From: a virus | DNA: 41,918 bases | Reading direction: 5' to 3' (one strand) | Virus record (IMG/VR): IMGVR_UViG_3300045988_009872 | Shown here: positions 25,396 to 38,782 of the stretch, one piece after another | Numbering within the stretch: the stretch's first letter is position 1 | How the letters are laid out: the number at the start of each line of letters is the position of its first letter | Made by a program: the position numbers and the translations under genes | The notes under the pieces: model-generated | Database searches by the model: none | What the model was told of the DNA's origin: nothing | The model's input: only the letters and a program-made list of their open reading frames with translations

Positions 25396-25960
25396 TCATC
25401 ACCACCTCGCACTTTTATTTGCTACCAGCCCCCGCCCCTTGGCCTTACATAGCAGTCTTTACCCGCCCCGAGGGGCACATCTGGTGCGGCATTGCAGTCC
25501 TGCCCTGCTTTAGCGCTTCAGGGAAAGTCCCCGTCACTCGCTGTGGTCTCCCCTTACGGGGCACCTATGCCGTATATCTCCGCAACGAGCCGGTCGGCGC
25601 TCCGGCATCTCCAACAGCATGAGCATTTGCGTCCTCACGTCCGGGCGGAAGCTGCCTGTTCTGCCCTTCGTTGCGGTGCTGCCGTCTAAAACTGCCATCA
25701 CCATGCGCAATCACGGTGACGTGCTGGAACTCCGGTAGCGTAGTTTGTGGGCATGTCCCCGCTGGGCCACATCGTCGAGAGGTGCGCGGGGTCCTGTGCC
25801 GCATGAGAGGCGCGACCTCTCGGCCCTGATCGTGGGCTGCATCGTGCGTGCGGCAAATCGCGGGGGGGCGGTGTGAAAAGATAAAAAGCACCGCGCCCCG
25901 CTATGGCGCAGGAGGCTGAACGCCATAAATGAGAGAACCGCAAAGGCTTTTACACCTCTG
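25396..25960 (-). ncRNA. long GC-rich structured 5' leader / candidate ncRNA upstream of terS
   Basis: About 565 nt with no credible ORF. All three minus frames are open with Arg/Pro-rich translations. Stable hairpins lie at 25860-25901, 25903-25926 and 25550-25561 (GUAA tetraloop). Four GGCAG repeats are present. Confidence 0.5.
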
Positions 25961-37836: not shown

Positions 37837-37910
37837 GGACACAATATCTTGTGGTGAGATTCGTCCCACCCGCCCCGCTCGATGCTGCAACATTGGGCGG
37901 GGCATTTTTT
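37837..37910 (+). ncRNA. candidate ~70-nt antisense sRNA (OOP-like) opposite the early transcript
   Basis: Promoter TTGCCT (37802-37807) -17- TACAAT (37825-37830). Terminator hairpin GCCCCGC/GCGGGGC (37872-37903) followed by T6 (37905-37910). There is no plus-strand ORF. Confidence 0.55.
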
Positions 37911-38136
37911 ACTGCCCATCGCTGGATTCAAACAGCTCGTCCACGGTCACGCCGTACATCTTCGCCAGCTTCTTGTGGTACTTGCGCAGCGGTCGCCAGT
38001 CGCCAAGCTCCCAATGCGTCACGCAGGATAGGTCAACATTCAGTTTCTTCGCCACCTGCGCGCGGGTCAGCCCGGAGCGTTCTCGCAGCTCTCTCAATGT
38101 CAATTTTTGCGTCCTCCCTTCATTGTGAGTTATCAT
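37909..38136 (-). CDS. Cro-like HTH regulator
   Basis: HTH region LTLRELRERSGLTRAQVAKKLNVDLSCVTHWE. The likely true start is the TTG at 38103, 9 nt after GGGAGGA. The ATG at 38136 has no RBS. Confidence 0.75.
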   Translation of the reverse strand: MITHNEGRTQKLTLRELRERSGLTRAQVAKKLNVDLSCVTHWELGDWRPLRKYHKKLAKMYGVTVDELFESSDGQ

Positions 38137-38151
38137 TGACTGCGGCGGGGA
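38134..38151. repeat. left arm of an 18-bp perfect inverted repeat (CATTGACTGCGGCGGGGA)
   Basis: Its reverse complement is found at 38545-38562. It contains the -35 of the 38136-38164 promoter. Confidence 0.9.
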
Positions 38152-38170
38152 GATTTGCTATACTGCCATT

Positions 38171-38545
38171 AGCCCTCTTTGGGCAACTTCAAAGGAGGTG
38201 GTTTTCGTGACCAACCTTTTGATTTTGCCTGTTCCCTTCCTGCCGGGTCGCAACAGCGGTGCCAAAGCGCGTTAAACTGGCTAAATGTAGCAACTGATAC
38301 GGCGGAGCACTCAGTGAAGAGGTTAAAACTCACGGTGATATGCCAGTAATCATATCCCACCGTATCGGGTACTCCCGATTGCTTACCAGCGAGAAGGCAA
38401 TGCGCAGAACCAAAACTGCGAAAGTGGTAAGGCTCCAGAAGAACTTGTAGCACCATTGCAAGCGGCGAAAGCCTGCACGGAGTAAAGGGTAAACAAATTT
38501 GGACATTGGCCGGTGGGAATGGTGCTCCCACCGGTCTTATGTTTT
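38171..38545 (+). ncRNA. candidate ~375-nt structured RNA in the cI/cro intergenic region
   Basis: Promoter TTGACT (38136-38141) -17- TATACT (38159-38164). Terminator hairpin 38508-38536 followed by a T-rich tract. GAAA tetraloop hairpins at 38416-38427 and 38464-38473. Perfect hairpins at 38337-38356 and 38364-38379. Only a 22-codon ORF (38207-38275) follows an SD that is buried in a hairpin. Confidence 0.5.
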
Positions 38546-38562
38546 CCCCGCCGCAGTCAATG
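38545..38562. repeat. right arm of the 18-bp perfect inverted repeat
   Basis: TCCCCGCCGCAGTCAATG is the reverse complement of 38134-38151. Confidence 0.9.
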
Positions 38563-38596
38563 CCCCCCGAAACCTCATAAACGTGAGAAATCACAC

Positions 38597-38625
38597 TTGA
38601 CACTGCCCCGAAAGCGTATTACAAT
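38597..38625 (+). promoter_or_regulatory. near-consensus sigma-A promoter upstream of the CI-like gene
   Basis: TTGACA (38597-38602), a 17-nt spacer, then TACAAT (38620-38625). Confidence 0.7.
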
Positions 38626-38721
38626 GAAATCGCCAAAAGACATTGCAAAAAAGCCGCTTTTATGGGGGCTGGGTTTTGTGTACCCTTTTCCGGTGGGCTT
38701 AGGTATATGATACCTCACTTT

Positions 38722-38755
38722 ATGGGGTAAGTCAATACTTGATACCCCATTTTTT
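38722..38755 (+). terminator. terminator-like hairpin in the repressor leader (attenuator or sRNA 3' end)
   Basis: 8-bp stem ATGGGGTA/TACCCCAT (38722-38750) followed by T5-6. It lies about 30 nt before the CI-like start. Confidence 0.5.
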
Positions 38756-38782
38756 GGGTTTTGGCGAAACCCACAAATTGAG

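Follow-up and report, generated by a model that had tools for sequence, protein, structure and literature searches.

A FuFi-1 RNA gene with a putative translated mini-ORF, predicted to lie antisense within the early-lytic leader of a prophage

The window analyzed here, the whole 41,918-nt stretch of the IMG/VR virus record IMGVR_UViG_3300045988_009872, represents the end of a prophage and contains an ERF recombinase gene, a Cro-like helix-turn-helix (HTH) gene, genes for further HTH regulators, and a tyrosine integrase gene. A 429-bp segment bounded by an inverted repeat separates the Cro-like gene from an HTH regulator gene on the opposite strand, in the part of the prophage that controls lysis and lysogeny. 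A preliminary description of the sequence presented this segment as an RNA-like element with a promoter and a terminator of its own and could not match it to an RNA family. The segment is indeed a self-contained RNA gene, and it has a match in Rfam: a cmscan search of Rfam 15 matched positions 38382-38540 on the plus strand to the FuFi-1 RNA (RF02986) with 122.8 bits against a gathering score of 59.6 (E = 1.9e-26), and this match spans positions 1-175 of the 175 in the model, terminator hairpin included. It is close to certain that the 429-bp segment is a complete FuFi-1 RNA gene. Its core is a typical member of a known orphan family, and the finding of the core itself is not new: FuFi-1 was described in 2017 by Weinberg et al., whose main text states that its properties suggest a sophisticated biochemical function and assigns none (PMC5737381). 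In the searchable literature, FuFi-1 is named only in that study, and neither a function nor a testable context has been added since.

Positions 38136-38544 are predicted to form one transcription unit, in which a sigma-70 promoter drives an RNA of ~370 nt that ends at an intrinsic terminator (table 1). The promoter, which had been proposed earlier as TTGACT-17-TATACT, was recovered in a consensus scan with 10 of 12 consensus positions, lies at the equivalent relative position in all aligned lineages, and is predicted to start transcription at ~38171-38172. The terminator hairpin at 38508-38536, likewise proposed earlier and said to abut the right repeat, was confirmed with an 11-bp stem and a T-rich tail. 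The predicted full RNA has five parts, namely a 5' stem-loop, a Shine-Dalgarno (SD) sequence with a mini-ORF (a small open reading frame), a middle domain, the FuFi-1 core, and the terminator. The 5' GCC..GGC hairpin is present in all aligned lineages, with the fourth pair changed from C-G to U-A in some of them, and the 5' stem-loop aligns poorly in A1. Loci that are 69-80% identical to the window are homologous to it over 38191-38553, that is, from ~190 nt 5' of the Rfam match onward. The transcript is predicted to be ~370 nt long, not 160-175 nt, and the Rfam model of FuFi-1 probably truncates the biological RNA. The only long frame over the segment, a minus-strand ORF at 38169-38603 that had been judged non-protein-like, is indeed no gene and breaks up in relatives below ~90% identity.

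Table 1. Coordinates of the features discussed in the text (positions in the window)
Feature	Position	Strand	Description
Cro-like HTH gene, first early gene	37909..38103	-	Pfam HTH_31 and HTH_3; PHROG repressor families
Left arm of inverted repeat	38134..38151	.	CATTGACTGCGGCGGGGA; holds -35 hexamer and spacer start of RNA promoter
RNA-gene promoter (predicted)	38136..38164	+	TTGACT (38136-38141), 17-nt spacer with extended TG, TATACT (38159-38164); 10/12 consensus positions
5' stem-loop of RNA	38172..38184	+	GCCC-UCUUU-GGGC
Shine-Dalgarno	38191..38198	+	consensus AAAGGAGG, 8 nt before start codon; near-invariant in 67 unique homologous 5' regions
Mini-ORF	38207..38275	+	GTG 38207 to TAA 38275, 22 codons, MTNLLILPVPFLPGRNSGAKAR
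Middle domain	38240..38381	+	only in ~380-nt forms; four covarying helices
FuFi-1 core	38382..38540	+	full-length RF02986 match; covariation 95.3% paired versus 35-42% in slid controls
Conserved hairpin	38404..38419	+	GCAG-AACCAAAA-CUGC (GAACCAAAAC, GCAGAACCAAAACUGC); invariant in 22-sequence alignment
Kissing-loop 5' partner	38450..38456	+	internal hairpin loop GCACCAU
Invariant 16-mer	38487..38502	+	GGGUAAACAAAUUUGG; unpaired in Rfam model; invariant in 22-sequence alignment
Intrinsic terminator (predicted)	38508..38544	+	11-bp stem 38508-38518/38526-38536, then U-rich tail TTATGTTTT; adjoins right arm
Kissing-loop 3' partner	38519..38525	+	terminator loop AUGGUGC
Right arm of inverted repeat	38545..38562	.	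exact reverse complement of left arm (18/18); directly after terminator T-tract
Promoter for downstream HTH gene (predicted)	38597..38625	+	TTGACA-17-TACAAT; faces minus-strand promoter
Candidate early-lytic promoter	38707..38735	-	TTGACT-17-TATCAT; aims back through whole RNA gene at Cro-like gene
HTH regulator gene, 117 aa	38783..39136	+	downstream of RNA; weak match to phrog_8, 4e-5

For the comparisons, which draw on ~200 related loci, we collected ~270 loci (cited below as L with a number) by scanning viral contigs for the invariant 16-mer of the core and for the core of the repeat arm, and genomes for the 16-mer extended by one base. Related loci score 79-144 bits against the FuFi-1 model, and some variants with insertions within the core are still recognized with 79-106 bits. 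The family comes in forms of ~380 nt, to which the window belongs, and in forms of ~298 nt that have no middle domain. FuFi-1 matches in genomes, with 80-142 bits, were found on Lachnospiraceae, Lachnoclostridium, Marvinbryantia, Eubacterium, Acutalibacteraceae, and Allofournierella contigs, and Faecousia and Oscillospiraceae contigs gave matches to a profile of the FuFi-1 3' domain (nhmmer) and BLAST matches. These contigs fall within the Firmicutes/Fusobacteria host range of FuFi-1. A BLAST search with three family members against 50,697 GenBank phage records returned only the metagenomic record MT835537 and no cultured phage. The cultured Allofournierella massiliensis An912 has two tandem FuFi-1 genes (L270:3023-3846), each with an SD and a mini-ORF, and a 6A RNA (RF02925) lies ~1.2 kb from them. 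Outside the Firmicutes and Fusobacteria, a 79.8-bit match was seen at L226:1917-2092, on a short contig binned as Gastranaerophilales (Melainabacteria) that may be a mis-binned phage.

The fold of the core is supported by covariation in a 22-sequence alignment, for which the controls were the same partners slid by 1-3 columns. Among the 48 pairs of the core, 38 change on both sides, with the paired fraction of cells given in table 1, and in the terminator stem both-sided changes occur in 10 of 11 pairs. The loop of an internal hairpin and the loop of the terminator are complementary in every lineage although their sequences differ (95.4% paired, with compensatory changes in five of seven pairs), which makes the terminator an element of the tertiary fold. 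The consensus loops in Rfam are also complementary, and the original authors may already have known this kissing loop. Two GAAA tetraloop hairpins had been proposed in the preliminary description. The one at 38464-38473 (GGC-GAAA-GCC) is real and covaries, whereas the one at 38416-38427 is not a conserved hairpin, as CUGC at 38416-38419 pairs with GCAG at 38404-38407.

The middle domain is built from the helices 38240-38247/38374-38381, 38256-38258/38268-38270, 38295-38305/38357-38367, and 38337-38341/38352-38356. In this domain 92.5% of the cells are paired, versus 33-52% in the slid controls, and both partners change in 20 of 25 pairs. The helix 38240-38247/38374-38381 closes the domain right after the conserved part of the mini-ORF; its 3' strand takes the place of part of a stem that had been proposed at 38364-38379 and that is not a conserved pairing, while another proposed stem, at 38337-38356, has covariation support. 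Because G-U pairs are frequent, we place the structure on the plus strand. A pseudoknot CUGGC/GCCAG in the middle domain looked plausible by eye in some subfamilies; the alignment is inconsistent there, and we make no claim for it.

The SD and the GTG frame of 22 codons at 38207-38275 are present as first reported. To characterize them across the family, we searched with a profile of the 5' region, which found 132 copies, 67 of them unique, and examined 56 unique sequences in a common register. Among 111 FuFi-1 cores with enough upstream sequence, 104 have an SD-ORF module on the same strand 64-262 nt upstream. In the 56 sequences, a start codon lies 6-9 nt after the SD (TTG in 24, ATG in 18, and GTG in 12), and two sequences with TTA at the start position have an in-frame ATG 3 nt upstream. 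The peptides follow the consensus M-[T/S/K]-[K/N/Q/E/A]-[L/F/I/M]-[L]-x-[L]-P-[V/A]-[P/L], and their codons vary synonymously: Pro8 is encoded by CCT, CCC, CCG, or CCA, Pro10 by CCC, CCA, or CCT, and Leu7 by TTG or CTG. Despite many nucleotide differences, the pattern xxΦΦxLPVP is kept in divergent lineages (MKAMFSLPVPF, MKAILNLPALLI, MSQCLTLPVPLI, and MSQFLNLPAPLL). Insertions and deletions in the mini-ORF stay in frame (+12, +3, and -3 nt); the start codon is shifted by 3 nt in L026 and L115, and L014 has one additional codon. A 12-nt duplication within the mini-ORF of the viral contig L148 (MTKLLTKLLTLPVPD…) likewise retains the frame. Because the SD and start are kept, the Pro and Leu codons vary synonymously, insertions and deletions are in frame, and the module is present in 104 of 111 cases, the mini-ORF is very probably translated. 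The preliminary description counted a conserved protein-coding frame at this place as evidence against an RNA element, and such a frame exists in part, since the mini-ORF is conserved as coding sequence. Family-wide conservation is, however, limited to the first ~11 residues, and the length varies from 12 to 36 codons, with many frames ending at codon 13. N-terminal conservation with a variable tail would be expected of a nascent-peptide or ribosome-loading element, not of a folded protein.

It had also been suggested that the SD and GTG are buried in a stem. The local fold is possible, as the SD and start codon can fold against codons 2-5 and this pairing is kept in 88% of the cells; the pairing shows no covariation. 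A second pairing, between codons 2-8 of the mini-ORF and the invariant 16-mer, was proposed by RNAalifold. Both of its sides are invariant and so without covariation, it is broken in L002, and variants in L149 and L122 are uncompensated. The ORF start is the best partner of the 16-mer within the RNA in 67 of 95 sequences, which are not independent of each other. We retain this pairing as a possibility.

Beyond the terminator, a candidate early-lytic promoter on the minus strand points back through the RNA gene. As antisense promoters we counted sites that match 10 or more of the 12 consensus positions and lie no more than 500 nt beyond the terminator. One was found in 22 of 30 representative lineages, versus 12% of background windows; L003, L029, and L096 have sites of 11/12 or 12/12. 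On the other side of the gene, the divergent first early gene starts so near the -35 of the RNA promoter (~30 nt from it in the window) that there is no room for a promoter of its own. The start of the Cro-like gene in the window is probably the TTG at 38103, which has a GGGAGG SD at the usual distance, and a CAT within the left arm is probably not its start codon. Because an antisense promoter lies downstream and there is no room for a promoter upstream, the RNA gene is predicted to lie reversed within the early-lytic leader, and the two units would converge with an overlap of ~530 bp. This convergent nested layout recurs across lineages, and in most of them a repressor-like HTH gene follows the RNA on the same strand.

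Some further elements of this region are worth recording. The promoters at 38597-38625 (plus) and 38707-38735 (minus) face each other with an overlap of ~70 nt. The direct repeats TGATACCTCACTTTATGGG (38708-38726) and TGATACCCCATTTTTTGGG (38740-38758) flank the -35 of the minus-strand promoter and are probably the true operators of the switch. A hairpin CTCA-N6-TGAG at 38574-38587, just to the right of the right arm, keeps its stem and varies in its loop in sister phages, and could serve either as a site for a protein or as a hairpin in RNA.

The 18-bp perfect inverted repeat reported in the preliminary description is present, with its arms matching at 18 of 18 positions, and nothing else in the 41.9-kb window matches them even when three mismatches are allowed; shuffled sequences average 0.02 matches. 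In the phage family of the window, the arms and flanks are constant, the Cro-like gene is 72-96% identical, and the switch region to the right, as far as it is shared (~38545-38717 and beyond), is 75-96% identical. What lies between the arms varies: the slot contains FuFi-1, either in full or as a variant, or else a deletion derivative, a ~150-nt RNA-like unit, a 43-aa protein, or another ORF. Both arms are present with every cargo type, every cargo has a promoter first and a terminator last, and the arms are 153-415 bp apart. The viral contigs L124, L198, and L217 encode, in place of FuFi-1, a very basic 43-aa protein (MAKNSVRTSKTVASKASKALSSGKTSKTTKTIAASALSNRRSK) of phrog_5079, a family without known function; L121-type loci contain a GC-rich RNA-like unit of ~150 nt that has no Rfam match, and L120-type loci contain the other ORF. 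Both arms are also kept in the deletion derivatives L084, which has no equivalent of 38306-38461, and L135, in which the -10 is missing along with the 5' half of the RNA. In more distant phages, homology ends at the arms (at 38562 in L001, and extending over 38128-38560 in L022 and L093 and over 38135-38559 in L033 and L016).

Inverted repeats of unrelated sequence are found at the equivalent two positions in at least six lineages, with one arm at the -35 and spacer of the RNA promoter and the other between the terminator and the opposing promoter. The arms are 18 nt long in the family of the window, 28 nt in L096, 34 nt with five transitions in L057, 24 nt and imperfect in L031, 16 nt in L223, and 11-12 nt in the L003 clade. 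They co-vary, with A/A in L005, T/T in the second cassette of L193, and G/G in L232. Transition mismatches between the arms, tallied by hand, number ~10 versus 8 and show no G-U bias on either strand, and an RNA reading and a DNA reading of the arms are therefore not separated by them. In the predicted fold of the minus strand from 38700 to 38095, the arms pair over 18 bp and clamp the antisense cargo between them (-214 kcal/mol, z = -4.0). The inverted repeat is a selected boundary feature of the slot, and it may act either as a DNA site for a protein or as an RNA clamp. We also considered that an outward extension of the repeat stem might sequester the SD and start of the Cro-like gene and rejected it, as the flank duplexes are ~1.5 standard deviations better than shuffles, a difference that comes largely from shared TTGACA and TGAG words.

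Taking the layout and the comparisons below together, we tentatively read the RNA as a convergent, antisense RNA of the lysogeny side that has a further activity; this is possible in our view, if short of probable. The RNA would be made in the lysogen, where, as the lysogeny-side partner of a convergent promoter pair, it would damp leaky early-lytic expression through transcriptional interference and through pairing with the fully complementary lytic leader, possibly with participation of RNase III. Upon induction, strong firing of the lytic promoter would occlude the RNA promoter. The 5' stem-loop, the strong SD, and the translated mini-ORF would load a ribosome at the 5' end and in this way stabilize the RNA or couple its folding to translation. 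The slot would accept other cargo because any promoter-to-terminator cassette could provide interference. Several points weigh against this reading. Under the criteria used, 8 of the 30 lineages have no strong antisense promoter, and the main text of Weinberg et al. reports that no self-cleavage of FuFi-1 was seen and proposes no function (PMC5737381). A purely antisense role needs no conservation of structure and loops across lineages. As cis-antisense pairs are complementary by construction, the mechanism covers the position of the gene and the interchangeable cargo and leaves the most striking features, namely the invariant 16-mer, the AACCAAAA loop, and the elaborate fold, unexplained. Given the invariant loops and the kissing terminator, the RNA should have another, sequence-specific activity as well, for example the binding of a partner. 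We consider it rather unlikely that the fuller picture holds in all its parts at once, with FuFi-1 not as a 175-nt sRNA but as the 3' domain of a bifunctional 300-380-nt transcript whose 5' part includes a translated, peptide-conserved mini-ORF (MTKLLxLPVP…), nested antisense in the early-lytic leader of many Clostridia prophages as the lysogeny-side arm of a convergent bistable switch, placed in a refillable cassette slot bounded by inverted repeats, and with the mini-ORF acting as a ribosome-loading or nascent-peptide sensor through which the translation state of the host would bear on the stability or folding of the RNA.

Small phage RNAs of immunity regions that restrain lytic or antirepressor functions include P4 CI RNA, c4 of P1 and P7, sar of P22, and OOP of lambda. 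The preliminary description invoked P4 CI RNA and P1 c4 as precedents for an RNA regulator of immunity; the position of the gene fits such a regulator, but the RNA is not a relative of either, and the Rfam scan of the segment gave no match other than FuFi-1 and none to P4 CI, c4, sar, or OOP. Those RNAs differ from the present one in being at most ~100 nt long and in having defined short complementary target sites, and to our knowledge they are not conserved structured RNAs across many lineages and none has a translated mini-ORF. For the present RNA, only chance-level complementarities to sites in trans were noted, in analyses that did not include a search aimed at trans targets. In coliphages 186 and P2, the lytic and lysogenic promoters stand face to face, and the switch works in part through transcriptional interference. 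Two promoters likewise face each other in the window, at 38597-38625 (plus) and 38735-38707 (minus); the overlap in 186 and P2 is, however, tens of bp without a separate RNA gene, whereas here a whole structured-RNA gene is nested.

Compared with the published FuFi-1, the gene described here matches the full model at twice the gathering score, and the GAACCAAAAC hairpin, the GGGUAAACAAAUUUGG stretch, the 3' intrinsic terminator, and the Firmicutes (Clostridia) hosts are shared. There is no difference in the core. The published model, however, comprises only the 3' ~175 nt, whereas the transcript here, like that of 104 out of 111 relatives, also includes an SD and a conserved mini-ORF behind a 5' stem-loop, and the long forms add a covarying middle domain of ~140 nt; in its main text, the 2017 study contains neither the antisense placement in a switch region nor flanking inverted repeats (PMC5737381). 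An analog in layout is prgQ/prgX of the Enterococcus faecalis plasmid pCF10, a two-state switch that also has an RNA of a few hundred nt with a small ORF at the 5' end and a terminator at the other; this RNA and the leader of the opposing operon are transcribed convergently and are complementary (PMC3181467). Qs RNA of pCF10 serves as mRNA, leader, and trans regulator in a convergent overlap of 223 nt, where transcriptional interference is combined with RNase III cleavage (PMC3181467). The two systems have no sequence or structural homology, the prgQ peptide is the precursor of a secreted pheromone inhibitor with its active part at the C-terminus, the overlap is 223 nt there versus ~530 nt here, and neither a short RNA like Anti-Q nor a PrgX-type regulator is evident here. 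By analogy, the resemblance points to a possible way of working, not to family membership. The near-perfect SD GAAAGGAGG near the 5' end is reminiscent of STAB-SD, which stabilizes Gram-positive mRNA through binding of the 30S subunit, and such binding could block 5'-to-3' decay by RNase J1 (PMC4113751). It differs from STAB-SD in that a start codon and a conserved peptide come after it.

Other explanations of the RNA have to be weighed against a convergent antisense role. It may be moron cargo that binds a protein or acts in trans for the prophage or its host, for example in phage defense or host manipulation, in which case the slot would be merely permissive and the convergence incidental. 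That sister phages have unrelated cargo in the slot, that one cultured genome has two tandem copies, and that the prophage of the window contains skipping-rope, a second orphan RNA, would all agree with this, as would the invariant loops and 16-mer and the kissing-loop, multi-stem architecture, which is of the kind that the main text of Weinberg et al. presents as typical of demanding RNAs (PMC5737381). We nevertheless judge moron cargo somewhat unlikely, as FuFi-1 occupies the equivalent place, antisense in the early leader and upstream of a repressor-like gene, in lineages without shared flanks, and no co-occurring partner protein was found. A very unlikely alternative, in our estimation, is a cis-acting leader or attenuator, in which ribosome occupancy or stalling on the Leu- and Pro-rich mini-ORF, or a ligand on the FuFi-1 fold, sets the read-through into the repressor-like gene. 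The HTH gene has a strong promoter of its own (38597-38625), and the opposing promoter (38735-38707) lies between the terminator and the gene, so that the RNA is not a 5' untranslated region (UTR) free of intervening promoters. Moreover, sister phages replace the RNA by unrelated cargo ending in a terminator, the terminator loop belongs to a conserved tertiary fold, the alternative pairings do not covary, and FuFi-1 was judged an improbable riboswitch in the main text of Weinberg et al., as it is rarely found in 5' UTRs (PMC5737381). What would suit an attenuator is the order in most lineages of SD and mini-ORF, structured RNA, terminator, and same-strand HTH gene, together with a choice of two potential pairing partners for codons 2-8, namely the SD and, beside the terminator, the invariant 16-mer. 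Conserved first codons with a varying ORF length are known from regulatory leader peptides, and the mini-ORF, with its first 11 codons conserved and its length varying, resembles these. We find it hardly credible that the RNA is a type I toxin-antitoxin-like mRNA, with the mini-ORF encoding a toxic peptide that mRNA folding and antisense RNA would keep silent. The length and high degree of structure of the RNA, an SD that can be sequestered, possible pairing of its 5' and 3' parts, predicted overlapping antisense transcription, and the location in a prophage would suit such an mRNA; but only the first ~11 residues of the peptide are conserved, the frames have 12-36 codons with many stopping at codon 13, and the peptide has Pro at positions 8 and 10 and no hydrophobic segment of transmembrane length.

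Separate explanations apply to the inverted repeat. The arms could be two DNA sites for one regulator, the left one repressing the RNA promoter and the right one blocking or looping the early leader, which is compatible with any role of the RNA. The left arm always lies over the -35 and spacer of the RNA promoter and the right arm always between the terminator and the opposing promoter, the arm sequences co-vary (L005, the second cassette of L193, and L232), and the mismatches, at ~10 versus 8 without G-U bias, do not favor an RNA stem. Bacillus phage phi105 reportedly has asymmetric operators in inverted orientation hundreds of bp apart, which we count in favor of such sites. Identical arms, however, stand beside two unrelated families of the first early gene on the left and at least five different repressor-like HTH genes on the right, which disagrees with the earlier suggestion of paired operators for repressor-mediated looping. 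This result speaks against the neighboring repressors specifically and leaves a DNA role to some other protein; the arms are probably not an operator of the adjacent regulators. With no third copy of the arm in the window, no helical phasing in a spacing of 153-415 bp, and no binding protein assigned to the arms, we rate the two-site explanation as unlikely. Still less likely, to our mind, is that the arms pair in the minus-strand early leader, where the 18-bp clamp would loop out the antisense cargo and perhaps provide an RNase III site upstream of the first early gene. In the window, as in the L003 and L096 lineages, the predicted early leader takes in both arms; the predicted minus-strand fold forms the clamp, and the feature is independent of cargo and arm spacing. 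The mismatches show no minus-strand G-U excess, however, the arms of the L003 clade have only 11-12 nt, 18 bp is less than the ~20 bp usually quoted for RNase III substrates (PMC3181467), and the coincidence of the left arm with the -35 would be unexplained. That the segment is a miniature inverted-repeat transposable element or an invertible DNA switch, both of which had been considered in the preliminary description, is highly improbable. The repeat is perfect, it encloses a promoter as in invertible elements, homology to distant phages ends at the arms, and the cargo between them differs among sister phages. Yet the genuine copies of the 16-mer arm core in related phages are all in this one context, and other matches are chance occurrences in coding regions of unrelated phages. 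The ~100 related loci are collinear and have one orientation; scans for a flipped junction and for an empty hairpin with adjacent arms, which would represent an ancestral or solo site, gave 0 hits each; the flanks (...GAGTTAT before the left arm and CCCCCCG after the right arm) show no target-site duplication; and the only recombinase linked to the slot is the prophage integrase, 2 kb away.

Within the searchable literature, four features appear to be new: a full-length transcript that includes the conserved mini-ORF, the middle domain, the nesting of the gene antisense within the early leader, and inverted repeats that recur as the boundaries of a cargo slot. The 2017 study, in its main text, singled out FuFi-1 as one of a few orphan RNAs of bacteria for which conservation and architecture suggest that the function is biochemically demanding (PMC5737381). 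With its placement in the switch, the mini-ORF, the kissing terminator, and the swapping of cargo in the slot by sister phages, the function of FuFi-1 is now experimentally approachable, and it is of relevance to the control of lysis and lysogeny in the abundant and little-studied prophages of gut Clostridia.

Two other elements of the window are noted here. Between the Cro-like gene and the next early gene, a strong terminator-like hairpin at 37872-37903 on the plus strand (13 bp, then ATTTTTT) is directed against early transcription. A skipping-rope RNA (RF02924), another orphan from the 2017 paper, was found at 25581-25675 on the minus strand with 45.2 bits (threshold, 36.7), immediately upstream of the genes for the small and large terminase subunits (25024-25395 and 23757-25031, both on the minus strand). 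FuFi-1 and skipping-rope are also both present in L096, where they are 4.4 kb apart.

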